Assembly (NCBI GenBank): GCA_037033225.1
Contig: JAZBLM010000002.1
Span: 10,084 to 74,083 of the forward strand
DNA: 64,000 nucleotides
DNA from: Pseudomonadota bacterium
GTDB taxonomy: Bacteria > Pseudomonadota > Gammaproteobacteria > Xanthomonadales > Xanthomonadaceae
Direction: 5' to 3'
Positions 17,101-56,437 of this stretch are shown here, piece after piece. A program made the position numbers and the translations under genes. The notes under the pieces are model-generated. The model was not told the DNA's origin and ran no database searches. It saw only the letters and a list, made by a program, of their open reading frames with translations. Position 1 is the stretch's first letter. The number at the start of each line of letters is the position of its first letter.

Positions 17101-20100
17101 CCTGTGCCGTCAGAGTGCCCTTGACGTTGGAGACCTCGGTGGTCAGGGCCGCCGTTGACTGAGCATTGGCCGCGACACGGTTCTGCAGGTCACCGATGCT
17201 GCCCGGGGTCTGCACGACAACGTCATCGATTAGCACGTAGGCGCTGGACAATGGACGGATGCTGCCAGCAGCAAAGCGCAGGTAGAGCTGTTGCGGATTG
17301 AAGGTGCTCGGCACGGTCCACGTGTAGGACCGCAAGGCCCAGGCGCCACCCGTTGTGTTGATCCAGCTGTTCCAGCTCTGGACCCAGCCGGTCGGGTTGG
17401 ACAGGCTGGAGATCAATCCCACGGTCACCGCGTCGGTGCCGCTGATGTCCTCGCTGCTCTTGGTCCGGAACGTGACGGTGATCGCATCGCCCGGATTGAC
17501 AGTGATCGGCGTCAGGTTTGCCACGCGGAGCGATCCAGCACCCGATCGCAATGCCTTCTCCGTGGGATCCCAGCTGAAAGAGCTGCCGGAGCCCGAGGCG
17601 GCCCAGCTCGCCACGTCCAGATCAAAGGTGCCGTTGGGGATGGCGTTGAAGCTGCGCAGCACGCCGTCCAGGCCGCTCCGGACGTTGTTGATCGACTGCG
17701 CGTTGGCGTTGTCGCGCTCGACGCTGGCCTGCTCTGCCGCGGCGACCGATGCCTGGCTTGCCAGCTGGCCGCTGCCGGCCGGCAGCCGGCCCTCGATGAG
17801 GCTGGTGCGCTCGGCGATAACCCGGTCGCCCTCGATCCGTGCCGAGTTGACCTGTCCGATCATCCCCTGCGCGGCGGCGGCATCGTTGCCGGCGTAGTCG
17901 CCGCGCAGCTGCACGGCCAAGGTGTTGCGCTGGGTTGCCTCAGTGGCGTCGGCGGTCTGGCGTGCCAAGGTCTCCTGCTGCACCAGGGCCACGCTGGCGC
18001 CCGGCGTCGGGCGGCCGATGGCGATGTAATCGAACAGCAGGTAGGCGGTCGCCGTCTGGTTGCTGGCCAACGACAGCCGGATCTGCCTGATGGGCGAGGC
18101 GCCATTCCACGGCAGGTTGTCGACGTCGACCGTCGCCATGCCGGCGGCATCGAAGTTTGGCGCCGGCATGGTCACCGACTTGGCGGTGTTCCAGGTGGTG
18201 TCGGCGTCGGTGATCCACTGCACCAGCCCGCGCCAGGTGGGAGTGCCGACCCGCTGCAGGCGCATTTTGATGAAGCGGTAGGCCGCACCGTCCACCGCCA
18301 GTGCCGCCGGCGAGGTGATGTGCGGATTGCTGGCCTGGTTTGCCGGCCGCAGCCAGCCGTCCACGATGGTCGGCGCGCCGTTGCCGGTCCAGCCTTCGGC
18401 CGTGCTGTCGAAGTACCAGACCTGCTTGCTGTCGAACTGGGTGCCACTGCCGGCGGCCACCGAAGAGACCTGACGCGCCAGCGACTCAACATCGCTCTGG
18501 CGCGCAGTCGTCTCCAGCGCAATATCGGCCTTCCAGTCCAGCCTGGCGTTCAGGAGCGCTTGGATCCGCGCCGCCTCCTCATCGGCAACGGCCTCGGCCA
18601 CGCCGACGACCTGGTCACGCACGCTCTGCACGTCGGCCAGGCGCAGCGTTGCTTCGCCGACGAGGTCCGCCTGCGCCTGTGCGAAGGCAGCCGCCCGCTC
18701 AGCAGCCTCAGCGGCATCACGCGCAATGCTGTCGGCCTTATCGCGGTCGATCTGGTTTTGCTGTTCGATCAGCTGCTGGGTCTGCTCCTCGAGCGAGTCC
18801 TCGATGCCGCCAATGACCTCGCTCAGGTTCGCCTGCAGTGTCTTGGCCAGCAGCTGCATGCCCGTGGACAGCGTGCCGGAGGTGTTGCGCGAACGGCAGG
18901 CGAAGGTCCACTCACCCGCCGGTGGCAAGACCGCCTCAAAGGCCGAGGCGTGGTAGCCGTCGTCGCCCAGCGGGATCATCGCGTCCCACGCGGGGGCCGA
19001 GTGCGTCCCGGCGATGTACCGGATCTCCACGCCGGCAAAGTTGGCCGACTGGATGGTGTCGCTCAGGAATCCCCAGGTGTAGCGGCGCACACCGCCGCTC
19101 AGCTGCTCAACGTCAAACAGGTCCACCACCACCGGCGGCGCATCGGCGCCCAGGGTCGTGTAGATCACCGAGGCCGCCACGCCGGCGTTGCCGTCCGGGC
19201 TGTAGGGGCGCACGGTCACGGGATACGTGCCGGCGCCCGGGATGCGCCAGGTCGCGGTGCGGGTGACGGTCCTGGCCACTTCTTCCAGCGACGCGTTGCC
19301 GTCCAGGTCGGACAGCACAATGGTGTCGCCCACCGGGCCGGTGATGGCGAAGGTGGCCTGCAGCTCGGTGTACTCGGTATCGCCCTGAACCACCTGCCGC
19401 TCGGTGATCTTCAGGTCGCTGGCCACCGGCCGGGTCTGCAGCAGGGATTCGTTCGGATCCCGGACGTACTCGCCGGTCTTCACGTATTGCCAGAACTGCG
19501 GGCTCTCCGCTACCACTTCGACCGCGGCGCCCTTCAGGTCACTCTCGGGCCGGATGCTGGTCACGCGCACGCGCAGGCCCGGGGTCTGCTTGAAGTCGTA
19601 GATCCAAAGCGTGTCCCAAGCCGGGTTGGCCTCGCTGTTGCCCGGCAGGGCTGCGTCGGCAGGCCAGCCATCGGCCAGCACAAGAATGTCGCTGGTGCCG
19701 GCAAAGGGCTGTACACGCAGCACGCGGTACACGCGCTCTCCTGGGATGCGCAGCCCAACGAAGGCGTTGCCCTGCGCAGGCGCCGGCACGGGCTCGTCAA
19801 GCTGCAGGGTGGCCGTGCCGCCTGCGATCGATGCGCCCTTGACCCGCCCACCGAAGCCCCACTGGGTCATGTCGTGCTGCAGCGCCAACATCGACATGCG
19901 GCTGTACGACAGGTGTTCGATATCGGTGCTGTAGCTAATCGCCTTGTATTGGTACAGGCTCTGCGCCAGGTGCCAGCGGGCCAGCATCACCGCGTGGGCC
20001 TCACTGGTGATGCCCTCCCCGCTCACCTGCGCCGGGTTGAGCATGGTGGTGACGCCGGGGGCAGGCACGCGCAGGGTCTTGGGCTGCCAGGTTGCGCTGT

Positions 20101-21778
20101 CCAGGTACGTGTACTCGATGCCGTCGGCACCGTTGGTCAGGGTGTAGTCGACCTGGAAAGCGCCCTTCTTGATCGTGGCCATGTTGACCACACCGGACAG
20201 CGGCTGCTCATCGGCAGCCCAACCCACGGACAGTCGCCCGCGGGGCCAGCTGATTTGCCCGAACCCGGCCAGCGCCAGCACATCCAGCACCTGCTGGTGG
20301 CTACGGACATCGATAATCCAGTTGTTGTAGGTGAAGCCGCTCGCGGCGCAGTGGAGGATGAAGGCCTTGAGGCCCTCGAGGTCGATCTGCCGTTCGGGCA
20401 GCCCCATGCCGGCAACCAGCACGCGCCCACCTGGCGCGGTGGGATCAGGCGCATAGATGCCACGGGCATAGGCGAGGATCCAAGCCCCCGGATTGCTGGT
20501 CCGCTGCGTCACCCACTCCGTTCCCGTCCAGACCGGGATCGGCATGGAATGGGCGACGCAGCGAATCTCATCGGGGGCTCCGTTGAGCTGGCCGTTGGCC
20601 TTCATCCGGATCCCGATTCGCGAAATCCCGGCATAGCTCGCCGTGTCCCGCTGAACGCTGGTCAGCGTGGTCCAGACAAAGGAGGCTTCAGCACCGGATC
20701 CGTCGGTGTTGTTGCCCGCCACGCGCACGCGCACGTCGTACTGTCCCTCGGGCACGTCGATCGCGTAGCTTGCGCGCTGGCTCTTATTGTTGGTGCCGCT
20801 GACATTGAAGCTGCCGAAGTTCTGCCACGCCACGGCGCCGGCCGCGCGGTACTGGATCTGGATCTGCTCCTGGTTGCGCTTGTCCTTGCCCTTGGTCGTG
20901 CGGTCCCAGATCTGAAACTCCACGCCTACCATCAGCCGGATACTGCCGGCGGAGCTGGTGCGCTGCACCCACGCGCTGGGCTGGTTCTTGGGATCGTTGC
21001 TGGTGTCCAACAGCGTGCCGCCGTCGGTCACATCCGCATTGCCGTAGAGCGGGATGTCCTGGCCTACCATACCCGGGAAGCCGTTGTGCCACACGCGGAC
21101 GCCTTCGAAGGACGACAGCAGCGCATCGCCGTTGTAGAGCTGTTCCACGCTGTCCACGTTCAGCCCGGGCGTCAGCACAAAGGACAGGAACTGATCGTCA
21201 CCCTCGTAGTGGGTGTAATAGTTGCTAATCAAGTCCGGCGCGATGCGCATCGACCCGATCAGCAAGCCCACCGGCTGGTCGTGGCGCGCACGATTGCGGC
21301 CGGCCGCGATCGAGTACGCCGACTGGCCGGGAGCACTCTGCTTCGGCTGCTTGGGCTGCAGCACGCGGTTGATGAGCACGGAGCCCGCCATGTAGATACC
21401 GGTCGCGGCAGCGGCGCCAAGCCCCTGCACCGCGGCGCCGGCGCCCCACGTCGCCAAGGTGCCGAAGCCGAAGGTGAAGTAGGTCAGCGCCAGGGTGGCC
21501 ACCAGCGCAACGGCGGAGCGGCCCACAGCCCCTCGGGCCTCGATCACTTGACCATGCTTGGGGTACACGAAGGGCCACATGCCGCGCGGCACTGCTTTCC
21601 CGCCGATCAGCACCACCCAGTCCTGGGCGTCCAGATCGATCACGTGCCGATGCAGGAACGTGCACAGGGCTTCGCCCGGCAGCAGGTCCGCGGGCTGATT
21701 GCGCTGGCCATCGACCAGCACCGGGTGCGGCGTCACGATCAGGCGGCCGCTGGTGGCCGGGCTATGCATCAGACCCAT
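14135..21778 (-). CDS. Tail tip/host-specificity protein J with multiple carbohydrate-binding-like modules (~2547 aa)
   Basis: Position after the NlpC gene; tail-tip style N-terminal region (GQYDVRVR, SNPGAWIL); repeated N..N..F..W modules with coiled-coil linkers. Confidence 0.9.
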   Translation of the reverse strand: MGLMHSPATSGRLIVTPHPVLVDGQRNQPADLLPGEALCTFLHRHVIDLDAQDWVVLIGGKAVPRGMWPFVYPKHGQVIEARGAVGRSAVALVATLALTYFTFGFGTLATWGAGAAVQGLGAAAATGIYMAGSVLINRVLQPKQPKQSAPGQSAYSIAAGRNRARHDQPVGLLIGSMRIAPDLISNYYTHYEGDDQFLSFVLTPGLNVDSVEQLYNGDALLSSFEGVRVWHNGFPGMVGQDIPLYGNADVTDGGTLLDTSNDPKNQPSAWVQRTSSAGSIRLMVGVEFQIWDRTTKGKDKRNQEQIQIQYRAAGAVAWQNFGSFNVSGTNNKSQRASYAIDVPEGQYDVRVRVAGNNTDGSGAEASFVWTTLTSVQRDTASYAGISRIGIRMKANGQLNGAPDEIRCVAHSMPIPVWTGTEWVTQRTSNPGAWILAYARGIYAPDPTAPGGRVLVAGMGLPERQIDLEGLKAFILHCAASGFTYNNWIIDVRSHQQVLDVLALAGFGQISWPRGRLSVGWAADEQPLSGVVNMATIKKGAFQVDYTLTNGADGIEYTYLDSATWQPKTLRVPAPGVTTMLNPAQVSGEGITSEAHAVMLARWHLAQSLYQYKAISYSTDIEHLSYSRMSMLALQHDMTQWGFGGRVKGASIAGGTATLQLDEPVPAPAQGNAFVGLRIPGERVYRVLRVQPFAGTSDILVLADGWPADAALPGNSEANPAWDTLWIYDFKQTPGLRVRVTSIRPESDLKGAAVEVVAESPQFWQYVKTGEYVRDPNESLLQTRPVASDLKITERQVVQGDTEYTELQATFAITGPVGDTIVLSDLDGNASLEEVARTVTRTATWRIPGAGTYPVTVRPYSPDGNAGVAASVIYTTLGADAPPVVVDLFDVEQLSGGVRRYTWGFLSDTIQSANFAGVEIRYIAGTHSAPAWDAMIPLGDDGYHASAFEAVLPPAGEWTFACRSRNTSGTLSTGMQLLAKTLQANLSEVIGGIEDSLEEQTQQLIEQQNQIDRDKADSIARDAAEAAERAAAFAQAQADLVGEATLRLADVQSVRDQVVGVAEAVADEEAARIQALLNARLDWKADIALETTARQSDVESLARQVSSVAAGSGTQFDSKQVWYFDSTAEGWTGNGAPTIVDGWLRPANQASNPHITSPAALAVDGAAYRFIKMRLQRVGTPTWRGLVQWITDADTTWNTAKSVTMPAPNFDAAGMATVDVDNLPWNGASPIRQIRLSLASNQTATAYLLFDYIAIGRPTPGASVALVQQETLARQTADATEATQRNTLAVQLRGDYAGNDAAAAQGMIGQVNSARIEGDRVIAERTSLIEGRLPAGSGQLASQASVAAAEQASVERDNANAQSINNVRSGLDGVLRSFNAIPNGTFDLDVASWAASGSGSSFSWDPTEKALRSGAGSLRVANLTPITVNPGDAITVTFRTKSSEDISGTDAVTVGLISSLSNPTGWVQSWNSWINTTGGAWALRSYTWTVPSTFNPQQLYLRFAAGSIRPLSSAYVLIDDVVVQTPGSIGDLQNRVAANAQSTAALTTEVSNVKGTLTAQGAALTQTQQDVAGKASNASLQSLSGRVDVHDGQITSQGAAMTAVQSQLGNIGGDNQLGNSGFENGTLGYNTSTSGAVAGSIVRTLVDSPLPNSTKAWRWAIANLPASGYSELVSNSQVRTLRVEPGKPVTISAYVRGTIGPRVFLQMAWRDAAGAAISYSGTTNVAPYRVTSEAYERKVFTTPPAPANAVTGNVYVRVYGTNTPDQWFEVDNVQVQIGEAATGYAPSVAEVADATAANAAASSALSTRLTSAEGQLVSQGTALTNVNARIDGVLLTGDNLLPNSNFAQGMSDWLFNSGGGTGNTGVWGATSGDGGPGYVITKAASQNPYLTSNNGLWMAVRANRRYRARVRAKALSGTGTLLLRLRRRHVDGSTYSSDVQKTFSTTVFESCGADFPVTAVENTDIQLQVFAYPSNTSVAIDRVELYDVTDQLSSEANAAATTSLTTRVTSAEGTLTSQGTAITNVTATANGAKATADATASGLSATNATVTQQGNTLTSQGTQINQVTASLGSKANASAVIELDAKVGRNLTGGGNLLTNASFSENGRKPWGFIWNDQGVWQEVQKNFLDPTYWPTGLNSMGFRASGTPNNNESRFGLVGNENTIGAQPGKRYIASAYLNAHRCGTVVWIAFYNHAGQIVGEVTSPEIGPYGLGGYPSLAEMPRQFVQMVAPPTTRTVRMGWRARAHSSFGSDPYLWAVRPMLEQVPDDQLTPSPWSAGGAEDHAGINMFTDVNGNVAGMQVKNNGTTGEINMLASVLNVISPGAADGMELTKGNLRVWAGNSQGIMGNGFGPDSLMLYFGPNVGIAGASKQLATIWFDRNGGAYFGGAIAAGIRRNAVQSTQTTTVGAGVTTGYFDTNGNNKAVVISLSRRVRRTKGASGSTGFVTGAGSNSATVYVYRQIAGQGETLWTSFTAGGGVEILNEIDGPDVATSVWNGSITLNDSIDGTAQRSYRAEIVAYSEQAVTHTSGTFEGQTITQSLSVVSIEQ

Positions 21779-22164
21779 TCGTAGATTCCTTCGATGCGCA
21801 GGCCAAAGCTCTGCAGTTCGCGCACGCGGTGCAGGACGCTGCACCCGTGGCGTTCGTTGCTGTGGAGTACCCAGCCCTCATGGGCCAGAAAGAAGAAAAC
21901 CCCGGCATGGCCGGGGTTTCGTTGTCCGTGGTCGAACATCAGGACCAGATCGCCGTCCTGCGGCGGTCCCTCCCGCAATCGCGCATAGGGGCGGGAGAGC
22001 GCCCCCAGCTCGACCTCCCCGCGCGGCCCGCGCGGCCGGCGGCTGGGCATCTCGACATGCCGGCCGAACAGTTCGCGCTGGACGCTGACCACCAGGTCCG
22101 CGCAATCGGCTGAATCAGGGTCGTAGGGGATGAGCGTGAACGGCTCGACATCTGCGGTCCGCAT
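21769..22164 (-). CDS. Tail assembly protein, NlpC/P60 family (gpK-like)
   Basis: DCADLV, GDLVLM, HAGV, VLH. Confidence 0.85.
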   Translation of the reverse strand: MRTADVEPFTLIPYDPDSADCADLVVSVQRELFGRHVEMPSRRPRGPRGEVELGALSRPYARLREGPPQDGDLVLMFDHGQRNPGHAGVFFFLAHEGWVLHSNERHGCSVLHRVRELQSFGLRIEGIYEWV

Positions 22165-45816: not shown

Positions 45817-45884
45817 AGATTAGGACTAGCTAATTGGTAAGTCAATAGCCAGTCCTAATAAACTAATGGTTAGCCTTACCTAAT
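45817..45884. promoter_or_regulatory. OR region: three 16-bp operators with pR and pRM
   Basis: ATTAGGACTAGCTAAT 45819, AATAGCCAGTCCTAAT 45844, GTTAGCCTTACCTAAT 45869; minus strand TTGACT-17-TAATCT. Confidence 0.8.
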
Positions 45885-46572
45885 GACTACTCTTGCAGAA
45901 CGTTTGACGGCTGCTATTGCACACGCCGGGTTGACGCAAGCCGAGCTCGCGCGGCGCGTTGGAATAAGCGCCCCCAGCGTCAATGGTTGGTTCAGTGGCA
46001 AAGCCAAATTCCTCCGTGGGGAAAACCTCCTCGCGGCAGCGCGCGCCCTTGCGGTGGACGAGAACTGGCTCGCAACCGGCAAAGGACAGATGGCCTCAGG
46101 TGTGGATGCGTCGCACTCGGTCGCAACAGTCGCGGAGACTGAGACCAAGCCCGGCTATGTTCGCTTCGACGTTTTCGAAGGAGCAGCGGGCATGGGGGTG
46201 GGAGTGGTCAACCAAGATTTCCCGGAGGTCGTCGAGTCAATCGAGATTGCCGAATGGGAGGTGCGCCGGAAGCTCGGCTTCATGCCGCAGCCTGGTCGCA
46301 TACAGTTGATCACGGGACGCGGCCCGTCCATGCGCCCCAAGCTCGAAGACGGCGATATCATCTGGATCGACACCAGCTGCGATTACTTTGACGGCGACGA
46401 CTACTACCTGATCAACATCGGGGGCGAAACGCAGATCAAGATGCTGCAGCGGCGGGGCGACGGGCTGCACGTTGTAAGCGTGAACCCGGACTTCCCTCCC
46501 TACCGAGCAGAGGATGGTGAAGTCAGCATCTTGGGCAAAGCGTTGATCCACGCGGGCCTGCGGAAGTTCTAA
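45883..46572 (+). CDS. cI: CI-like repressor (HTH + S24 peptidase)
   Basis: LTQAELARRVGIS..SVNGW; AAGMG cleavage region; GPSMRP Ser and IKML Lys. Confidence 0.93.
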   Translation: MTTLAERLTAAIAHAGLTQAELARRVGISAPSVNGWFSGKAKFLRGENLLAAARALAVDENWLATGKGQMASGVDASHSVATVAETETKPGYVRFDVFEGAAGMGVGVVNQDFPEVVESIEIAEWEVRRKLGFMPQPGRIQLITGRGPSMRPKLEDGDIIWIDTSCDYFDGDDYYLINIGGETQIKMLQRRGDGLHVVSVNPDFPPYRAEDGEVSILGKALIHAGLRKF

Positions 46573-46608: not shown

Positions 46609-47064
46609 TCAGCGATTCTTCCTTGGGTCGGCAATCACGCGCGAAGGTGACCCGTAGAGCACCAGGACGCTGTGGCCAACCTCAAATGCAGGTTCGGGAC
46701 CCTGCACAACTGTCATAAGGTTCCCATTTTCGGTCTGAACCACATACTCGAGGCCAGTAGTGTTAGACGCCGAGCGTTCGGCTGCCGCACCCGCAATGGC
46801 CCCTACGACCAGCCCGCCAATTGCTCCGATCACTGCGGCCTCGCTACTACCGCCGATTGTCGAGCCAGCCACGCCACCAATTGCGCCGCCGGCAACAGCG
46901 CCGCCGCCTCCGCTACCGTCGATCGACACCGGGCGCACGCTGATCACCGAACCTGAGACGGTGCGATTCACTTGACCTACTGAACCGACCGAGTAGCTAT
47001 CCGTCCGAACGTTTGGCGCGCAAGCAACCAGCAAAAACGGCGTCAGGAGCAAGGCTCGCTTCAC
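46609..47064 (-). CDS. Glycine-zipper outer-membrane lipoprotein (SlyB-like)
   Basis: Lipobox LVAC; GAVAGGAIGGVAGSTIGG. Confidence 0.85.
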   Translation of the reverse strand: MKRALLLTPFLLVACAPNVRTDSYSVGSVGQVNRTVSGSVISVRPVSIDGSGGGGAVAGGAIGGVAGSTIGGSSEAAVIGAIGGLVVGAIAGAAAERSASNTTGLEYVVQTENGNLMTVVQGPEPAFEVGHSVLVLYGSPSRVIADPRKNR

Positions 47065-47627
47065 GGAGCACCCTGCTTACTCGGGAACATCGGCTTGCTC
47101 ACGTCGACAGCCTCGAGCGCCTGCAGGAACTGAGTGATGTTGTTCTGTGCCGAGCGATTTATCGACTCGCGGACGCGGATCACGCCAGCAAAGGCGTAGG
47201 TAGCAGGCACGACGCCCTCCGCGCTGACGTCCTGGGTATAGACAATCGCCCCAGTCGCGCGATCGATAAGCTCATATCGCGCAATGGTCTTGGTGGTCAT
47301 CGATGCGCCGAAAGCCGGGATATCGAGCGCGAGAATCTTTACCGACAGGCTCAGCTTGTTGGAAGAATCGTCGCGGAACACCGCCATCTTGTTGATCGCC
47401 TCAGTCAGTGCGGTCTCCCACATCTGCGGGATCTCGTGTTGGGCTGCGGCCGGGATCTTTCCTTTCGCCTCGTCCGGCCGCGCCAAGGTCACAGTCAGCG
47501 AACGAAGCTCGCCGTCCACCTTCTTAGTACTAACGCCGACATCAGGCACTGAGAAGTTCAGCGGAGGATTGCTGGCACAGCCAGACAATAAAAGCACTGC
47601 CGCAATGACGGCCCAGATCTTGTTCAT
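47061..47627 (-). CDS. Lipoprotein of unknown function
   Basis: Lipobox LSGC; GTGA overlap with the next gene. Confidence 0.8.
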   Translation of the reverse strand: MNKIWAVIAAVLLLSGCASNPPLNFSVPDVGVSTKKVDGELRSLTVTLARPDEAKGKIPAAAQHEIPQMWETALTEAINKMAVFRDDSSNKLSLSVKILALDIPAFGASMTTKTIARYELIDRATGAIVYTQDVSAEGVVPATYAFAGVIRVRESINRSAQNNITQFLQALEAVDVSKPMFPSKQGAP

Positions 47628-48141: not shown

Positions 48142-48383
48142 GCGCCATCATCCTCCCCTTCCGCGCCGCTCCGGACGTGCGCGAGCAGCGCGCGCACGGT
48201 GCCGCCGTCTGCGTGGCCATCGCAGACGCCCGCATGGGCTACCGCGCCGCACACATCGTCCGTGCCGCTGCCCTCGCTCGCCGCGAAGTGCTCGACGGCC
48301 GTAAGAGCGCAGCGCGCGCCGTCTCCGATATGACGCGTGACCTGGCCGTGGCCGCTCGCCCAACCGGAGGTAGCGCCGCATGA
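48138..48383 (+). CDS. Early-left hypothetical protein
   Basis: GGAGG SD, ATGA overlap. Confidence 0.7.
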   Translation: MSAIILPFRAAPDVREQRAHGAAVCVAIADARMGYRAAHIVRAAALARREVLDGRKSAARAVSDMTRDLAVAARPTGGSAA

Positions 48384-48577
48384 GCTGCATCCCTGAGCTG
48401 CTGGACTGCCCGTTCTGCGGCGGTGAGCCCACCCTCGAAACCACCACCGACCCGCAGGACAGCTGCAACTGCGTCCGCTGCGACGAGTGCGACTTTGACC
48501 TGATGGGCGGCCCGGTGGGCGTCGGCTGGTGGCCTACCCCCGCCGCTGCCGCAGCAGCATGGAACCGCCGCGCATGA
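48380..48577 (+). CDS. Lar-family restriction alleviation-like protein
   Basis: LLDCPFCGG, C..C, AWNRR. Confidence 0.75.
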   Translation: MSCIPELLDCPFCGGEPTLETTTDPQDSCNCVRCDECDFDLMGGPVGVGWWPTPAAAAAAWNRRA

Positions 48578-49320: not shown

Positions 49321-49393
49321 ATCCGCCCGCTCGGCCATGCCGAGCCCCGCGCCGGCCGGGTTCCACGCGCCGGTAACCCTTTCAGGAGTCGCC

Positions 49394-50299
49394 ATGTTCT
49401 TCCGCAACCTTGTCATGTTCCGCTTCCCCGTCGGTCTCGACTTTTCCCAGGTCGCCGAGCTGCTGCCTGCCGCCACCCTCAAGCCGGTTGGACCGTTGGA
49501 AATGTCATCCCGTGGCTTCGTCTCGCCGTTCGGGCGCGAAGAAACCGAGCAGCTGCACCACGCCATCGGCGACTGGCTTTGGCTGACAGTCGGCGCCCAG
49601 GACAAGATCCTGCCGGCTTCAGCTATCGGCGAAGCGCTCGAGCAGAAGCTGGCCGAGCTCGAGCGCAGCGAAGGGCGCCGCCCCGGTGGGCGCGAGCGCA
49701 AGCGCATGAAGGACGACCTGCTGCACGAGCTGCTGCCGAAGGCACTCGTGAAGTCGTCCCGCTGCGATGTGTTCCTCGACCTGGCACGCGGCGTCGCCTT
49801 CGTGGACACCAGCAGCCGCAAGCAGGGCGAGTACCTGATGTCGGACATTCGTGGCCTGCTCGGCAGCTTCCCGGCCATGCCGCTGAATGCCGAAGTCGCG
49901 CCGCGGTCGGTGCTGACTGGCTGGATCGCAGGCGAGGCGCTGCCGGCCGGCATTTCGCTGGGCGAGCAGTGCCAGTTGGAAGATCCCGTCGCGGGAGGCG
50001 CCATTGCCAAGCTCGACCGGCAGGAACTCTTCAGCGACGAGATTCGCAATCACCTCGATGCTGGCAAGCAGGTGACGCGCCTCGCCCTCGTGGTCGAGGA
50101 CACCGTCTCGCTGGTGCTGGGCGATGACCTTGTTGTGCGCAAACTCCGTTTCCTCGACGGCGCCCTGGACAAGCTGGAAGACACCGACGACGACGGGCGG
50201 CGTGCCGAGCTGGACGCCCGCTTCTCGCTGCAGATGGGAGAGTTAGGTGCGCTGTTCGACCGCCTAGCTGATGCATTCCATGTGAGCAGCGCCAAGTGA
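49394..50299 (+). CDS. rdgC: Recombination-associated protein RdgC
   Basis: MFFRNL..FRF, SRGFVSP, KILP, ELLPKA, GKQVTRLAL. Confidence 0.92.
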   Translation: MFFRNLVMFRFPVGLDFSQVAELLPAATLKPVGPLEMSSRGFVSPFGREETEQLHHAIGDWLWLTVGAQDKILPASAIGEALEQKLAELERSEGRRPGGRERKRMKDDLLHELLPKALVKSSRCDVFLDLARGVAFVDTSSRKQGEYLMSDIRGLLGSFPAMPLNAEVAPRSVLTGWIAGEALPAGISLGEQCQLEDPVAGGAIAKLDRQELFSDEIRNHLDAGKQVTRLALVVEDTVSLVLGDDLVVRKLRFLDGALDKLEDTDDDGRRAELDARFSLQMGELGALFDRLADAFHVSSAK

Positions 50300-51126
50300 G
50301 ATCTATGCCACGCCTCTATCCAAAGCGGAAACCGCGCAGGCTTTCAGATGGAACGAGTATTCCGTGGAACTACTTTCGGCGTCTCAACGGACGGAAGGAA
50401 GTCGTCTGCCAGCTCCAAGACTCTTTCTCTGATGCGCGATACCTCTTGCAACATTGCGTGCAACTCCGCTTCGCCCCCGTCGAAGCGAGCACCCATCAAG
50501 ATATTGGATTCAAAAGGCTCAGCGGAATCGATGTAGAGAGGCGGATGCAGTCTGGACGCCCGCGAAGCGGCGTCGCTCATAAGTCGCCGCGTATCTCCCA
50601 TGAGTTGTGCAATGAGCGAACCATGGTTTCGTTCGAGCAGATGCAGCCGACTCTCGACGCTTTCCGCGACAGGAAACCAGGGCCGTTGGCACGCGGCCAA
50701 CGCCTCAACCAGACGAGCGTAGTCCTTGATAAACGGGTAATCAGTGAAGCCGATTGCAGCAGACAGGCTATCCATAACGTGATCGGTCCGCATCACCAGG
50801 TCCGCAACTTCCTGCCAAAGCATTTGCGACAGAACGATGCCTTGCAGATGTCGGTCACGATCAGCGCTGACCTTCTGTTCCGTGGCGATTTCTGTCGCCT
50901 TCTGAGCGGCCAGCGCCGCAGAACGGGAGGCTCGCCAAGCTGCTACACCCACCAACGTGGCAGCTATTGTCCCCCAGGCATCCCAGTTAACCGAGCACGT
51001 ACTGCCGAGCAACCAGCACTGACTGACCCCGTCCAACATGCTCATTTCTCTGTCCCGCTATGGACTTGGCAGCATTCTGCCACGGAGCAAGCACTCTTGC
51101 CGCACGCGGAGCTGATTCATGGCTAA
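50296..51126 (+). other. Sense-strand bridging ORF 1 spanning an antisense gene
   Basis: GTGA overlap with rdgC stop; ATGGCTAA overlap with the next ORF. Confidence 0.45.
50344..51045 (-). CDS. Antisense moron: N-terminally membrane-anchored helical protein
   Basis: 233 aa; WDAWGTIAATLVGVAAW TM followed by coiled coil. Confidence 0.75.
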   Translation of the reverse strand: MSMLDGVSQCWLLGSTCSVNWDAWGTIAATLVGVAAWRASRSAALAAQKATEIATEQKVSADRDRHLQGIVLSQMLWQEVADLVMRTDHVMDSLSAAIGFTDYPFIKDYARLVEALAACQRPWFPVAESVESRLHLLERNHGSLIAQLMGDTRRLMSDAASRASRLHPPLYIDSAEPFESNILMGARFDGGEAELHAMLQEVSRIRERVLELADDFLPSVETPKVVPRNTRSI

Positions 51127-51490
51127 CGTAAGCCGCAATGTCACCGGCTCGATCGCAAGGGTTCCGCCGATGGTTAATTCTTCAGGCGAGCGACTGATCA
51201 ATCGCTGCACGAGCGGCCCCTCGAGCATCCGCGAGTGCTTCGGGGCCAGTTGCAAAGAGGGCTTCGCATCGTACCCATTCGTCTTCCTTCTGGGTTCCGA
51301 TTCGGTATTCCCCGAAGTAGCGGCCTTGCGGCGAGAAGCGTCCCTTTGCGCTATAGGCAACGCCTCGGTACGTGTTCGAGATCATCTCGGTGTTGAGAAC
51401 TTTGAGCATTGCAATCTCCCGGGAAAATGTGTGCCAGGGAGAGTATCTGGCTGCGGCGTACGTGTCCAAACAGCAGAGGATTTCGCTTGA
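51119..51490 (+). other. Sense-strand bridging ORF 2 spanning an antisense gene
   Basis: GGAG SD; TTGA overlap with the methyltransferase start. Confidence 0.45.
51182..51409 (-). CDS. Antisense moron: small hypothetical protein
   Basis: GGAG SD; MLKVLNTE...F.TGPEALADAR..A...ID. Confidence 0.65.
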   Translation of the reverse strand: MLKVLNTEMISNTYRGVAYSAKGRFSPQGRYFGEYRIGTQKEDEWVRCEALFATGPEALADARGAARAAIDQSLA

Positions 51491-52263
51491 ATTACTACAA
51501 CGAGTTCGAGCCCTACGCCGCGCAGTGGCTGCGCAACCTGATTGCCGCGGGGTTGATCCCCGCCGGGCATGTGGACACCAGGAGCATCATCGATGTTGAA
51601 TCAGCAGACCTCGCCGGATACCGGCAGTGCCACTTCTTCGCAGGCATCGGGGGATGGTCCCTCGCAGCCCGACTTGCTGGGTGGCCCGACGATCGAGAGC
51701 TGTGGACCGGCTCCGCGCCGTGCCAGCCGTTCTCCGTCGCGGGTAAAGGAAAAGCCCAGACTGACGATCGGCACCTGTGGCCTCACCTTTTCCGGCTCGC
51801 CCGTGCCCGACGGCCCGCTGTCCTCATGGGAGAGCAGGTTGCGGCGGCGGTTGGCAAGAACTGGCTCGACGGAGTGTTCGCTGACCTGGAAAGCATCGGC
51901 TACGCCTGCGGGGCGTCCGTTGTCCCGGCTTGTGCCGTCGACGCGCCCCACCGGCGGGACCGTCTCTGGTTTGTGGCCCACGCCAACCGCCAGGGATCAT
52001 ACGAACTTCGGCACCGCGGAATGGGCAGTGCGCCGGGCCCAGGAATCCGCCCGAGGATTATGCCTCCCGGAGGCGGTGGCAGATCACATTGGGCCGACAG
52101 CCAGGTCGAGAGAGGAAGGCGCGTTAACGCCTGCATTCCTGCTCTGGCTCATGGGGTTCCCGCCAGAGTGGGAAAGATGCGCGCCGGAGGCAATGCCATC
52201 GTCCCGCAGGTCGCCACAGAAGTGATCGGTGCCTACATGGACTGCTATCCGGAGGTCGCATGA
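51487..52263 (+). CDS. C5 DNA cytosine methyltransferase (large polypeptide)
   Basis: GAGGA SD, TTG start; FFAGIGG (I), PCQPFS (IV), EQV (VI), HRRDRLW (VIII), GNAIV (X). Confidence 0.9.
   Translation: MNYYNEFEPYAAQWLRNLIAAGLIPAGHVDTRSIIDVESADLAGYRQCHFFAGIGGWSLAARLAGWPDDRELWTGSAPCQPFSVAGKGKAQTDDRHLWPHLFRLARARRPAVLMGEQVAAAVGKNWLDGVFADLESIGYACGASVVPACAVDAPHRRDRLWFVAHANRQGSYELRHRGMGSAPGPGIRPRIMPPGGGGRSHWADSQVERGRRVNACIPALAHGVPARVGKMRAGGNAIVPQVATEVIGAYMDCYPEVA
51593..52225 (+). CDS. Overlapping alternate-frame polypeptide carrying a motif IX-like segment
   Basis: AGGAG SD 8 nt before ATG; WPTPTARD; LTPAFLLWLMGFPPEW. Confidence 0.7.
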   Translation: MLNQQTSPDTGSATSSQASGDGPSQPDLLGGPTIESCGPAPRRASRSPSRVKEKPRLTIGTCGLTFSGSPVPDGPLSSWESRLRRRLARTGSTECSLTWKASATPAGRPLSRLVPSTRPTGGTVSGLWPTPTARDHTNFGTAEWAVRRAQESARGLCLPEAVADHIGPTARSREEGALTPAFLLWLMGFPPEWERCAPEAMPSSRRSPQK

Positions 52264-52799
52264 CTCTGCTAATGCCTCAACAGCTCCAGCTCAGCCAGCA
52301 CTTCGGCCAGGCCACGGTTGCTGGCCAGCGCGCGTGCGTGCCGGGTCGGCCCAGCCTCGCCAGCCTCCAGCCACGCCGCCGCGTGCGTCCGCAGGGCCAC
52401 GTTCGCGGCTTCCAGCACGACGTGGTGGCGAGCGTTCCGCTGCAGCTCCACCAGCTTCGGGCCGAACACGCTCAAGAGCGTTGCGGCCGGGTCCTGCAGA
52501 AGCTGCTCTGCATCTCCCTGCATGTGCGCGCCGTGGTGCACCTGCTTGGCCAGCGCGTCGAGCAGGTCGGCCAGCCTCCGGTCAGTGCCAGGTGCGGGGG
52601 TTCGCACCTGACGCCGCTGGTGCGCACTCACATAGCGTTTCTGATGCAGCAGCTCCAGGACCGCGGCGCTCGTCCGCAGCTCGCCGGCCTCGGCGCCAGC
52701 CGTGAGCCACAGCTCCGCATGCGTCGAATTAGCGAACAGATTCATCTGTCCCATCGTATTGGCTTCCGCTCCTTTTATTCCAGTCGAGGTGTCCCATGA
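52260..52799 (+). other. Sense-strand bridging ORF 3 spanning an antisense gene
   Basis: GGAGG SD; ATGA overlaps at both ends. Confidence 0.45.
52269..52754 (-). CDS. Antisense moron: helical hypothetical protein
   Basis: 161 aa, typical GC3-rich codons on the minus strand. Confidence 0.7.
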   Translation of the reverse strand: MGQMNLFANSTHAELWLTAGAEAGELRTSAAVLELLHQKRYVSAHQRRQVRTPAPGTDRRLADLLDALAKQVHHGAHMQGDAEQLLQDPAATLLSVFGPKLVELQRNARHHVVLEAANVALRTHAAAWLEAGEAGPTRHARALASNRGLAEVLAELELLRH

Positions 52800-53101
52800 C
52801 CCAGTGCCAGATCGACCACCCCGAGGGCCTGCCGCCCTGCGCCGCTGGTCACAGCGCGCGGCATATCCATGACGGCCGGTGCGCCAGCGCCGGCGGCGGC
52901 CACTTCGTCGAGTGCCGCTGCAAGAAGACGGCCAAGCACGCCGATCCGGACGCGGCGCTGGCCAGCTGGCGCCGACTGAACCGTCCCGCGCGCAGCGCGC
53001 GGAAGGCGCGCCTACCCGTTGAGCCCGGCAACATCCTGCAGATGCCGCTCCGCCTTAACCATGCGGAGCTGCCGCGAAGGAGGGCCAGTGGGCGCGGCTG
53101 A
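52796..53101 (+). CDS. Cys/His-rich phage protein
   Basis: GAGGT SD; LPPCAAGH, HFVEC.C. Confidence 0.7.
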   Translation: MTQCQIDHPEGLPPCAAGHSARHIHDGRCASAGGGHFVECRCKKTAKHADPDAALASWRRLNRPARSARKARLPVEPGNILQMPLRLNHAELPRRRASGRG

Positions 53102-53423
53102 AAGTCTCGACCTCTCCGGAAAGGACTGGCTGACCGTTGAGGAAGCCGCGCATTACTGCGGCGTCTCAAACAGCCAATTCCGAAAGAACGCCCTGAGCTA
53201 CGGCCTAACGCCGCGACGCTTCATGGGGAAGCAGTTGTACGAAAAGGCGGCGCTCTATGCCGCGATCCAAGGTGCTGAAGAATGGCGAAGGTCCGACTCT
53301 ACTGGCGAGGCACAAAGGCCTACATCGACTGGGTCGAGGGCGGTGAGCGCTTTCGTCGGTCGATTGGGCAACTTAGCGCCCGTGAGGCGGAGGGAGTACG
53401 TAGCGCGAAAGAAGCCGAGCTGA
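53088..53423 (+). CDS. xis: Excisionase-like HTH protein
   Basis: AAGGAGG SD, GTG start; WLTVEEAAHYCGVS; immediately before int. Confidence 0.7.
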   Translation: MGAAESLDLSGKDWLTVEEAAHYCGVSNSQFRKNALSYGLTPRRFMGKQLYEKAALYAAIQGAEEWRRSDSTGEAQRPTSTGSRAVSAFVGRLGNLAPVRRREYVARKKPS

Positions 53424-54271
53424 CCCACGGGGTTCGGATACTCGCACGGCTGCCGAAGGTCAGGGACTACCTTGAGTGGTATCTCGACTGGTACGCCGCT
53501 GAGCATCCCACTACCATCACGAAAGCCCGAAGCGAAATGAAGCGCTTCATTGAGCGCTTTGGCCACAGGCCGATAGACAGCATCCGCGCGGTGGAGGTGG
53601 AGCAGTACAAGCGCTCCAGGCTGCTGGACGACAAGGCCGCAAAGGAGACAGTGGGGAAAGAGATCCGCAGGCTCAAGGCGGCTTTCAATCGGGGCATGGA
53701 ATGGAAGGAGCTGGACGTGAATCCGCTGGCGGCCGTGAAAGCACCAAGGGGGGTTCGCAGCGTCGCGGTGAAGTTCTACGACCGGGCGGCCATGCGCCGG
53801 CTCTATAGGGCCAATCCGACCCGCGCGCCGCTGTGGGTGTTCATGGCTCACACCGGGCTTCGCCGCGGCGAGGTCATCGGCTTGGAGAAGTCTGCGGTTG
53901 TAGCTGGCCGGCTGCTTGTGGAAAGCGATCCAGATGAGACCGGTGCAGGCCGTACCAAGTCAGGCAAGTGGCGGGAAGTTCCCCTCAACCGCTACGCCAA
54001 GTGGGCGCTTCGACACCTGCCTGATCCGCTGGTGACAGTGCACAAGGACACCGTTTCGGATTGGTTCGCGAAGGACGCCGCTGCGGCTGGCATTGGTGGT
54101 CACCTGCATCGACTGCGCCACACCTTCTGCGCTCACCTGGTTACCAACGGAGTATCGTTACGTAGAGTACAGTTGCTAGCAGGTCACGCTGACTACGCAA
54201 CAACTGAGAAGTACTACGCGCATCTAACTCCTGACGGGGACTGTCAGGCCGTCAATTATCTCCACTTCTAA
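53282..54271 (+). CDS. int: Tyrosine integrase
   Basis: TGLRRGE, TKSGK.R, HRLRHTF, LAGH, TTEKYY. Confidence 0.95.
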   Translation: MAKVRLYWRGTKAYIDWVEGGERFRRSIGQLSAREAEGVRSAKEAELTHGVRILARLPKVRDYLEWYLDWYAAEHPTTITKARSEMKRFIERFGHRPIDSIRAVEVEQYKRSRLLDDKAAKETVGKEIRRLKAAFNRGMEWKELDVNPLAAVKAPRGVRSVAVKFYDRAAMRRLYRANPTRAPLWVFMAHTGLRRGEVIGLEKSAVVAGRLLVESDPDETGAGRTKSGKWREVPLNRYAKWALRHLPDPLVTVHKDTVSDWFAKDAAAAGIGGHLHRLRHTFCAHLVTNGVSLRRVQLLAGHADYATTEKYYAHLTPDGDCQAVNYLHF

Positions 54272-54273
54272 AC

Positions 54274-54894
54274 ATGCCGCTCGCAGCCAATACAATGATT
54301 GACATCAACAACTATACGCTGCAGCTAATACAACTAACTCTTCAGGAGCCCCACCAAAAATCGAGTCAATTTTCTTCATCAGACTTTGTGGCGATGACAT
54401 CCGCATTTATCGCGCTCTTGGCACTTTTTGCGACAATCTACACCTCTCTGATACAAAGAAAGCACAATAGACTCAGTTCGAAGCCTCTTCTCAACATTGT
54501 CCTGAATTCGGCAGAAAAGAAGCTTTCTATTGCAAATTCGGGACTCGGTCCAGCGATCATTAAAGAGGTCGAGGCGATTCTCGACGGAAGAATATACAAC
54601 TTACTTATTGAAAGTGACGCTGATTCTTTCGCTGAGGCAGCATGTGCAGGACTGAGAACCGACACCTATTATGCCTGGATGGCGCTCGACCAAGATGCAG
54701 TTATCGCAGCAGGATCGAGCGAGCTTATGCTGTGGGTAAAGACTGATCAGCGGGACGAGTGGAACCTGACATATGGAGCGCTGGACAGGACTGCCCTTAA
54801 AGTTGTGTACCAGAGCATCTATAAAGAATCATCAACCTGTACTCACCTCGGACAAAACCATTATTCGGCCCACCCTAAGCCTCCGGAATCTTAG
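54274..54894 (+). CDS. Low-GC cargo protein with one N-terminal TM segment
   Basis: FVAMTSAFIALLALFATIY then RLSSKPLL; N.GLGPAII. Confidence 0.7.
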   Translation: MPLAANTMIDINNYTLQLIQLTLQEPHQKSSQFSSSDFVAMTSAFIALLALFATIYTSLIQRKHNRLSSKPLLNIVLNSAEKKLSIANSGLGPAIIKEVEAILDGRIYNLLIESDADSFAEAACAGLRTDTYYAWMALDQDAVIAAGSSELMLWVKTDQRDEWNLTYGALDRTALKVVYQSIYKESSTCTHLGQNHYSAHPKPPES

Positions 54895-54930
54895 GCTTTA
54901 CAACACTGACAAGGCATACCATCGACAGTC

Positions 54931-56406
54931 TCATTGGCTCCCATCAGGGACATCATCGAGCTCGAAGCTGTCAATCTTCCATCTCTCTTCACCTAGAAGG
55001 TTTGCACCAAGTGTGTATGCGTATTCAGCAGCTGGAACGAAACGGAATTTATAACCCTCGAATTCTACATTTCCGGATTTCGTGCGGCTCGTAACCATCA
55101 TGTCGCGCTCAAGAAGCTTCGGATTCTTTCTCAGGAATTCGACGCAGTTTTTTAGCTCGCCAACGCTATGAAATGGCTTGTCGGTCCACTTCACCTCAAC
55201 TGCCCAGTGAGGCTTTTGCGTGCGCCTGTCTAGAGAAACGATATCAATCTCACCCGCATTCCACCGAGCATAGTAGAGGTCAGTTCGATCACTATGCTGC
55301 CATTGGGAGTAGATAGCAGTTTCGACAAGATGACCAAAATGCGGATCATCCTGACCAATTCTCCCAAAGAGTGCGGAGCGCATTGAGGGATTAGTTAGAT
55401 AAACTTTGAAGGACATTGCCCGCTTAAACTGCCGCGCATTGCAATCAATCCTATCTACTCGACGGATTAGAAAAGCGGCCTCCAAGTATTCCAGATACCT
55501 TTTTATAGTATTTTTGGCCACACCTGAGGATTTTGAAAGCCCCTCAAGATTAACCTCATTCCCAGTATTATAGGCGAGAGTATTAAAAAGCTTATTAAGC
55601 TCTTGAATATCATTGATGCCATAAAGGCTTGGAAGATCCCTCAGCAATACCTTATCAATAATGTCGCTCTTGATATATTGCTCAGGATTGTCCCGGACAT
55701 CCTCTACTATCACAGCCTCCGGGTAGCCACCGTAGTTTAGATAATTTACAAATTCAATATTGAGAGCTTCAATATTTGTCGCCTTGTACATCGTTCGCTC
55801 AGGATCAATGAACGTTTCGACTTTTATTAAACTGACATCTTTCCCAACGAATGTTAGATATTCCGCAAAAGTAAGAGGCGGAAGCACGTAGTCGGAAAAT
55901 CTCCCAGCGCCCGACTCTTGGCTTTTTAGCCGTAGGGCAGCCGCCGCAGAACCCGTCGCAACAAATCTATAATCCGGAAATGAGTCAACCAAAGACTTGA
56001 GATGAACCTCCCAGTTCTTCAAATACTGAATTTCATCAAAGAAAATATAAGCAGTATCACGACGCCCGACGCCCTGGTCCTCCAGAAACATCCGCAGCAG
56101 CGACTCAAGAGAAAATCCAGTATAAATCGGCGTCTCGAGCGACAGGTAGAACACCTTGTCCCCGCTAACGCCCGCCTTTAGCAGTTCACCGATAGCTTGG
56201 TACACCATTACCGTCTTACCAACGCGCCGCGGCCCCATGAGAATTACGGCCCGCCTTAACTTCGTGTTCTTGATCTTGTTGAGAAAAGACGGGAAGTAGC
56301 GACGGCGTGGCGCGTCATCAAACGGCGTTTCGGCCTGCTTGTCTGCCCACCAAGGATTATCGAACCTCATACGAGATACGACGTCGTGTTTGGCAATTTC
56401 AAGCAT
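54931..56406 (-). CDS. AAA+ ATPase (AAA_14/DUF4143-like) with wHTH and C-terminal PD-(D/E)xK-like motif
   Basis: GPRRVGKT, FFDEIQ, TGS, ESGAGR, GGYPE, EIDIV...VEVKW. Confidence 0.9.
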   Translation of the reverse strand: MLEIAKHDVVSRMRFDNPWWADKQAETPFDDAPRRRYFPSFLNKIKNTKLRRAVILMGPRRVGKTVMVYQAIGELLKAGVSGDKVFYLSLETPIYTGFSLESLLRMFLEDQGVGRRDTAYIFFDEIQYLKNWEVHLKSLVDSFPDYRFVATGSAAAALRLKSQESGAGRFSDYVLPPLTFAEYLTFVGKDVSLIKVETFIDPERTMYKATNIEALNIEFVNYLNYGGYPEAVIVEDVRDNPEQYIKSDIIDKVLLRDLPSLYGINDIQELNKLFNTLAYNTGNEVNLEGLSKSSGVAKNTIKRYLEYLEAAFLIRRVDRIDCNARQFKRAMSFKVYLTNPSMRSALFGRIGQDDPHFGHLVETAIYSQWQHSDRTDLYYARWNAGEIDIVSLDRRTQKPHWAVEVKWTDKPFHSVGELKNCVEFLRKNPKLLERDMMVTSRTKSGNVEFEGYKFRFVPAAEYAYTLGANLLGEERWKIDSFELDDVPDGSQ

Positions 56407-56437
56407 CGGGACCACCTTTACCAAGTTCAGCGCACTG

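Follow-up and report, generated by a model that had tools for sequence, protein, structure and literature searches.

The morons of temperate phages were reportedly defined by Juhala et al. in 2000, and classical morons have their own promoter and terminator. Some reading frames, such as the trp and pheA leaders and the Salmonella mgtA/corA leaders that control the access of Rho, are valued for their translation and not for their product. In GC-rich DNA, long codon-aligned antisense frames (shadow open reading frames, or shadow ORFs) have been explained by codon bias (PMC3454372), and antisense overlapping genes have been reported in Pseudomonas aeruginosa (olg1/olg2; PMC8850804), in E. coli O157:H7 (PMC9927249), and in phage Fc02 (gene 10/olg1; PMC9936078). 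Translational coupling by stop/start overlap and Rho-dependent polarity on untranslated RNA have also been described (review PMC12360218). This literature covers shadow-ORF statistics, antisense overlapping genes, and Rho polarity, and we found in it no description of peptide-neutral ORFs that bridge antisense cargo. Here, we describe such ORFs in a stretch of 64,000 nucleotides (GenBank assembly GCA_037033225.1, contig JAZBLM010000002.1, positions 10,084 to 74,083), hereafter the window, whose coordinates are used throughout. The window contains a lambdoid Stenotrophomonas prophage, the organism being assigned from the organism names of homologues. In the early-left operon of this prophage, two slots hold minus-strand genes: A1 with A2, between rdgC and a C-5 cytosine DNA methyltransferase gene (the methylase), and A3, between the methylase and a gene for a small Cys-rich protein (g52796). 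Across both slots the operon strand remains an unbroken chain of ORFs, in which the genes are linked by three bridge ORFs (B1, B2, and B3). We propose, with a probability of about 60%, that the operon strand stays translatable across backward cargo because of selection or because insertions are filtered.

On the plus strand, the chain runs from rdgC (49337..50299) through a GTGA joint (50296-50299) into B1 (50296..51126, 276 codons), whose GTG start lies on the rdgC stop. B1 stops within the start of B2, in an 8-nucleotide (nt) overlap, ATGGCTAA (51119-51126); B2 (51119..51490, 123 codons), with GGAG 7 nt 5' of its ATG, ends in a TTGA (51487-51490), where its stop overlaps the TTG start of the methylase (51487..52263). 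The methylase stop in turn overlaps the start of B3 in an ATGA (52260-52263), and B3 (52260..52799, 179 codons), with GGAGG 5 nt 5' of its ATG, ends in a second ATGA (52796-52799) on the start of g52796 (52796..53101). An earlier note on this DNA had listed these ORFs and joints, and all of the positions were confirmed base for base, as were Shine-Dalgarno (SD)-like motifs at four of the five joints (GGAG, AGAGGA, GGAGG, and GAGG; none precedes 50296). All five joints are 4- or 8-nt stop/start overlaps, as is typical of translationally coupled junctions. Each bridge encloses a minus-strand gene in the same codon register, again as first described: A1 (50344..51045; 233 amino acids, aa), A2 (51182..51469 or 51182..51409), and A3 (52269..52754; 161 aa). 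In this register, a sense TAA, TAG, or TGA corresponds to TTA, CTA, or TCA in the cargo and could be removed by a synonymous Leu or Ser choice with the cargo protein untouched; the codon-aligned register would be used because only there are stops synonymously avoidable. The 233-codon A1 had been said to lack these three codons, and neither it nor A2 or A3 has any; rdgC contains five of them, the methylase three, g52796 one, and the integrase gene (int) four. The other two plus-strand frames have 6 and 11 stops over A1, 3 and 2 over A2, and 4 and 2 over A3, which rules out a general scarcity of stops on the plus strand, and on the mirror strand no minus-strand relay crosses the methylase or rdgC. 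The bridges resemble coupled operons in showing ATGA, GTGA, and TTGA joints with an upstream SD, in a setting where a ribosome-free stretch invites Rho; unlike in the known coupling between real genes, the coupled units here are peptide-neutral ORFs over opposite-strand genes.

We then considered which strand is under protein selection, since the minus-strand genes had been taken for the real ones and the bridge products for shadows. GC content by codon position was 0.62/0.47/0.62 on both strands for A1/B1 and A2/B2, with no discrimination between strands; because this measure was uninformative for the first slot, the relatives were used to choose the strand. Among A1 and two close homologues, the differences at codon positions 1/2/3 numbered 20/12/52, 24/18/61, and 23/14/37. 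In a set of 27 distinct A3 coding sequences from the genus, IMG/VR, and metagenomes, the third position changes about twice as fast as the first and second in every pair, and in a 133-aa A3-like subfamily it changes at 0.39-0.55 versus 0.14-0.27. A2, with a single relative in the genus, offers no statistical power. Third-position change at two to three times the first in A1, A3, and the A3-like subfamily bears out the earlier assignment, and these substitution patterns rule out the plus-strand ORFs as the real genes. Third positions have diverged as far in A3 (0.40) as in g52796 next to it (0.41), so that no additional constraint comes from the bridge peptide; the first codon position of the bridge changes at 0.39-0.55, the neutral rate of the locus, which is not the behaviour of dual-coding DNA. 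The bridge peptides are rich in Arg, Pro, Ser, and Gln and shadow-like; Pfam, PHROGs, and PADLOC gave no match for B1, B2, or B3, and B3 had no homologue among 5.8 billion proteins. These results show that the minus-strand proteins are the selected products and that the bridge peptides are unconstrained. As in antisense overlapping genes, two long opposite-strand ORFs occupy the same GC-rich DNA, and one is probably translated though unannotated; unlike in the olg-type pairs, where both products have been argued to be functional, the sense-strand bridge product is evolutionarily ignored, and its openness and joints are kept.

The earlier note had suggested a comparison of related prophages, to see whether the sense frame stays open and overlaps its neighbours at the ends when the slots hold other antisense genes, and this is what we found: the relay crosses nearly all related prophage slots examined, with at least 10 different left junctions and several unrelated cargo genes (L and G labels denote the related loci compared). 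The operon genes upstream of A3 vary and include a 258-aa C5-methylase, an N6-methylase, a PAPS reductase, C5-methylases of 494, 666, and 720 aa, and a gene of 64-68 aa. At 26 of the 27 distinct A3 left junctions, an ATG in the A3 register either overlaps a stop codon or follows a canonical SD, as in L053 and L061 (AAGGAGG-acaac-ATG); in the usual junction, 2, 5, or 8 nt separate GCATGA from the A3 stop, and all three spacers preserve the frame. Among the related loci examined, only L023 and the disrupted L043 have stops in the B3 frame. The latter (L043 = L030/L038, G092:C2:749383-749857) comes from a metagenome-assembled Stenotrophomonas, in which the A3 homologue, broken into two frames, is probably a pseudogene, and the bridge frame has three stops. 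When the slot holds more than A3, the relay is longer: in L022, one 274-codon ORF runs from the methylase ATGA to the g52796 ATGA over a 73-aa backward gene and A3, and in L066, three overlapping ORFs relay over a 211-aa backward gene and A3. The bridge ORF of L059 begins at the methylase ATGA, 285 nt before A3, and in L056 the ATGA lies within the 3' end of A3. In the A3-like subfamily, five different upstream genes share one 30-nt end, gacagcccgcAGGAGGcgagcgATGcgTGA (an AGGAGG-N6-ATG..TGA tail), which differs by about 7% between loci, against 39-55% at adjacent synonymous sites, and which by its features would be a textbook start region for the bridge. L032, in which this SD is degraded, has instead an in-frame ATGA on the stop of the real upstream gene, and in L034 an 18-codon ORF relays to the ATGA of the next gene.

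The rdgC-side slot showed a comparable pattern. In L068 and L070, the rdgC-NTGA-B1 joint is kept (ATGA in L070), and the chain then passes by an 8-nt overlap to an ORF of 60 codons, which reaches 8 nt into the downstream gene, a different one in each locus. In G011, the bridge opens with the first 23 codons of a displaced, truncated small gene and then covers a 252-aa A1-like gene, after which a 22-codon relay ORF (ATGA, then ATGCCTAG) passes to the A2 bridge, which ends on the methylase TTGA; a relay in G011 from an 80-aa gene was rejected, as it fails at an 88-nt gap, and the chain begins instead at the truncated small gene. Distant members of the A1 family (29-36% identity) were also compared in other genomes with public gene calls. 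Those nested backwards in operons (L076 twice, L078, and L079) have no stop-equivalent codons, with a GC content at third codon positions of 0.59-0.75, and each lies under one covering ORF that runs from an ATGA or GTGA to an ATGA, whereas the A1 relatives that are not nested (L071, L073, and L075) have 8, 1, and 1 stop-equivalent codons, respectively. These distant members provide the cleanest natural experiment. At L078:2959-3729, the public gene calls of the NCBI assembly list a 256-aa operon-strand ORF as well as a fully overlapping 241-aa A1-like gene.

A second comparison suggested by the earlier note concerned TTA, CTA, and TCA, which proved to be depleted in the A3 family relative to both the adjacent gene of the same loci and the non-nested relatives. 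The A3 family has one such codon in 4377, with 13.8 expected from host usage (3.3-3.6 per 1000 codons), and in the 2392 codons of g52796 from these loci there are 11, with 8.4 expected, spread over eight alignment columns and mostly in single sequences; the other genes of the prophage have 4.9 per 1000 codons. Rare Leu codons are nevertheless more frequent in the A3 family than in the host (TTG, 25 and CTT, 16 per 1000). Because the sequences are related, the naive count (1 vs. 13.8) overstates the significance, and it was replaced by a tree-aware simulation, in which codons turn over along the tree of the family and which was calibrated to the codon divergence seen in the sequences. Under host codon usage, the probability of at most one such codon was 0.014-0.028, or 0.024-0.045 given the stop-free window copy; under phage codon usage, it was <0.003, and the control gene g52796 sat at expectation. 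The number of stop-equivalents in the A3 family is therefore not set by codon usage alone, as it would be in a shadow ORF, and stop depletion alone is supportive but not overwhelming. The bridges are like shadow ORFs in that they share the register, lack protein-level constraint, and owe their openness largely to the rarity of TTA, CTA, and TCA; unlike shadow ORFs, they start on the upstream stop, end on the downstream start, keep an SD and an ATG, are handed on by overlapping mini-ORFs, and show extra stop depletion compared with the neighbouring gene.

The chance background was determined in a 3.5-Mb host assembly with a home-made codon-usage gene caller. In a relay test, forward-backward-forward slots were searched as a graph for ORFs joined by overlaps (strict, overlaps only; tolerant, 10 nt), and a relay crossed 5 of 345 host slots under the strict setting (1.4%) and 14 of 345 under the tolerant one (4%), while both window slots passed the strict test. 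That the ends should land on neighbouring starts and stops had been called unusual, and with overlaps at all five joints and only 1.4% of host slots passing, it is. At oriented convergent host junctions (n=210), an in-register open NTGA occurred in 6.7% and an ATGA in 1.4%. The probability of two adjacent relay slots is roughly 1e-3 to 1e-4; because a very large scan could yield such a double event by luck, the verdict rests on the comparative data.

In the mechanism that we propose, imported backward genes would occupy two operon slots, A1 with A2 in one and A3 in the other. At each slot, a start codon on the stop of the upstream gene would open a frame in the register of the backward gene, and this frame would be passed on by 4- or 8-nt stop/start overlaps until it ends on the start of the next operon gene. 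The peptide would be irrelevant, the function of the bridge being to be translated. The likely benefit is that the long transcript would never be ribosome-free, so that it would be spared Rho-dependent polarity and decay, and that termination-reinitiation would bring ribosomes to the methylase, g52796, xis, and int. The host genome encodes Rho. We infer that the bridges are translated and that Rho has a role, and likewise the timing of cargo expression. As expected of a cis-acting ORF, a bridge is conserved in where it lies, in its start, and in its openness but not in its peptide. In this respect the bridges would be like leader peptides, in which the act of translation matters, since the bridge sequence is free and its position and open state are conserved; unlike leader peptides, which are short 5' regulatory elements, they have 120-500 codons, lie inside the operon, and appear constitutive. 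The interpretation offered in the earlier note was similar, and the recurrence of open, end-overlapping frames, the codon depletion, the unconstrained bridge peptides, and the cargo slots have held up, with the reservation that part of the end coincidence is inherited or relic; in that interpretation, the cargo would also be expressed in the lysogen and might be silenced by pL transcription. More broadly, it may be a general rule that temperate phages tolerate backward early-operon cargo only if the operon strand stays translatable, with a relay across every antisense cassette, a generalization that we put at slightly better than even.

The alternative that survives best is chance combined with descent, in which the bridges are GC-rich shadow ORFs, their starts and SDs are left over from displaced operon genes, the ATGA and TTGA ends are fortuitous, and the modules are co-inherited. 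We consider this explanation possible but rather unlikely, and a number of observations speak for it and against a kept translatable strand. Shadows are common in GC-rich DNA, as the first description had granted; of host genes with 120-270 codons, 50-65% have an open antisense frame in the codon-aligned register, openness alone is expected in a GC-rich genome, and the relay test in its tolerant form is passed by about 4% of host slots. Some of the coincidence at the ends is inherited or relic and not independently evolved: the window methylase, truncated at ...CYP, shares its ...EVA*/GTCGCATGA tail with an unrelated N6-methylase, unrelated upstream genes share the tails EVA* and DSPQEASDA*, the G011 bridge reuses the start of the displaced gene with its first 23 codons, and the overlaps at the downstream ends are a consequence of Met-Thr and Met-Asn gene starts that are conserved. 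Because many of the loci share ancestry, counts overstate independence; the most conservative depletion model gives a P of only about 0.02-0.045; the host gene calls are crude and approximate; and in the slots the plus-strand RNA has only a mild excess of C over G, so that Rho sensitivity is not evident from composition. There are also exceptions, namely, one CTA in the bridge of L023, an unbridged three-gene cassette in L077, and an 81-aa backward ORF with in-register stops in L053/L062, although another plus frame spans it. However, relic starts account for the start and the SD but not for the register match, the open frame, or the repair by mini-ORFs. A relic start would be in register one-third of the time, yet, of about 14 junctions that we took to be independent because their sequences are dissimilar, at least 9 have an in-register open NTGA, compared with 6.7% in the host. 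Moreover, the 30-nt start region is about sevenfold better conserved than neighbouring synonymous sites, the spacers of 2, 5, and 8 nt preserve the frame, nested and non-nested members of the A1 family differ, and nothing similar occurs on the mirror strand.

Overprinting, in which the plus ORFs were original, the minus genes arose de novo in the antisense frame, and the plus proteins then lost their function with their ORFs intact, would account together for the nesting, the common register, and the normal SD and ATGA joints with which each bridge begins and ends. It is nevertheless highly unlikely, because B3 lacks any homologue, the A1 family is wide and also found outside such operons, where it lacks an open antisense frame, A1 and A2 have a GC content of 57-58% against about 66% in the flanks, the cargo varies between phages while the flanks are constant, and the methylase and the small gene of G011 are truncated at the junctions, as insertion predicts. 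True dual coding, in which B1-B3 are functional proteins besides A1-A3, has precedents in translated antisense overlapping genes of GC-rich Pseudomonas (PMC8850804) and a Pseudomonas phage (PMC9936078), and in L078 the public calls list both bridge and cargo, but we give it hardly any credence, as the first codon position of the bridge is as fast as the neutral third positions of the neighbouring gene, the shadow-like bridge peptides lack homologues and family matches, and the cargo genes show no depression of synonymous rates beyond the needs of start, stop, and stop avoidance.

The idea of cargo slots, put forward with the first description, agrees with the finding that the slot behind A3 holds nothing, a 73-aa, a 195-aa, or a 211-aa gene, depending on the phage, and that the rdgC-side slot holds A1 with or without A2. 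A1 (minus strand), the selected product of the first slot by codon-position differences, has an N-terminal hydrophobic segment and a helical body and belongs to a broad family of 190-270-aa proteins, with 76 representatives at E <= 1e-3. A2 (minus strand) may start at TTG 51469 (95 aa) or at the ATG that gives 51182..51409 (75 aa); the first description gave the latter coordinates, and the longer form is suggested as a correction by its sole relative, in G011, which aligns from residue 5 (51% identity over residues 5-92) and is likewise divergent from the methylase, 17 nt from where that gene starts. A2 and the methylase (51469..51487) form a conserved divergent pair in the window as in G011. 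A3 (minus strand), a cargo or leader gene with 42 database relatives, heads variable cargo downstream in some phages; it is paired with g52796 in 23 distinct loci, as a conserved divergent pair about 41 nt apart. Given these distances of 17 and 41 nt, promoters in both directions must be inside coding sequence. The AlphaFold2 model of A3 is all-helical, with a predicted local distance difference test score (pLDDT) of 66, and a fold search from it was dropped as too uncertain. Pfam, PHROGs, and PADLOC gave no match for A1, A2, or A3; in the protein atlas, A1 matched only unnamed clusters and A3 had no match. Like morons, A1 and A2 look imported, with their lower GC content, and the cargo lies between conserved phage genes with no phage-cycle function assigned; A3, at 69% GC, does not share this composition. 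The gaps to their neighbours are 5-44 nt, where classical morons would bring a promoter and a terminator, and a consensus scan of 50.2-52.8 kb, which is crude for this organism, found no promoter-like or terminator-like site.

The operon was assigned from gene order and from family matches for cI, cro-like, CII-like, O-like, RdgC, and HTH_17. Structural, lysis, and replication genes occupy the minus strand from about 13.6 to 45.8 kb. Because the cI-like repressor gene (45883..46572, plus strand; phrog_4 transcriptional repressor, E value 2e-48) points rightwards, the early-left direction is the plus strand; the cro-like, CII-like, and O-like genes lie on the minus strand, left of the repressor gene and divergent from it. 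The early-left operon runs from about 47.9 kb through a Lar-like gene and then rdgC (Pfam RdgC, 3.6e-87), the C5-methylase (phrog_363, 6e-73; Pfam DNA_methylase), g52796 (phrog_34716, 3e-36), an excisionase-like helix-turn-helix (HTH) gene, and the integrase gene, and it agrees with lambdoid early-left operons in the direction of cI, in having xis and int at its end, and in its divergence from the cro, cII, and replication genes. The TTG start of the methylase at 51487 gives an N-terminus, MNYYNEF, that fits the family. Its C-terminus is truncated, ending in ...CYPEVA* where relatives end in ...CYPDPAEQLRVALATN*, and CYPEVA* lies on sequence common to the A3 module, so that a recombination joint lies inside the last methylase codons. 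The excisionase-like ORF (53019..53423, plus strand; phrog_66 excisionase/regulator, 7.5e-5; weak Pfam HTH_17) probably has an internal true start, and the last gene of the operon strand encodes a tyrosine integrase (53282..54271, plus strand), assigned from the ORF listing and from PF00589 genes at the equivalent position in related loci. An Rfam search of 45-55.5 kb found no RNA family, and in DNA searches conservation in phages and relatives was limited to rdgC and the methylase.

Several further features of the prophage were noted. The Lar-like restriction-alleviation homologue (phrog_599, 48380..48577) is the second small Cys-rich gene of the operon besides g52796, and the two share a similar terminal motif, ...W(N/R)R(L/R). 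Between the repressor gene and the early-left operon is a backward lipoprotein-like gene (47061..47627, minus strand; phrog_12521, 2e-76), which is unbridged, with two stops in the codon-aligned plus frame; because it precedes the first gene of the operon, it bears on neither side. Directly 3' of the integrase gene is a low-GC island (45-50%, 54274..56424) with a minus-strand gene for a 497-aa ATPase, whose match in PADLOC is the candidate defence system PDC-S01 (6e-61); the island also holds a 206-aa gene (phrog_35671), and AAA_21/AAA_15/SMC_N ATPases occur at the same end of related prophages. The tail region contains a 2569-codon ORF (14135..21844, minus strand), which is very large for a tail or host-specificity protein.

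If the operon strand is indeed kept translatable, this would explain how prophages can take up defence or exclusion cargo in the direction opposite to an operon while the operon genes beyond the cargo remain served, and the insertions predicted to be viable would be codon-aligned cargo free of TTA, CTA, and TCA. The bridges would represent a class of long ORFs translated for position and not for product, which gene callers discard and which overlapping-gene studies may mistake for dual coding. They would also provide a genetic handle on transcription-translation coupling and Rho polarity, in that a bridge stop that leaves the cargo protein unchanged is predicted to have a polar effect on xis and int. 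There would also be a warning in it, namely, that not every antisense frame without stops in GC-rich phage DNA is an artefact. As a general rule of temperate phages, the need for a translatable operon strand would filter which insertions survive and would leave a hidden class of translated but meaningless ORFs.

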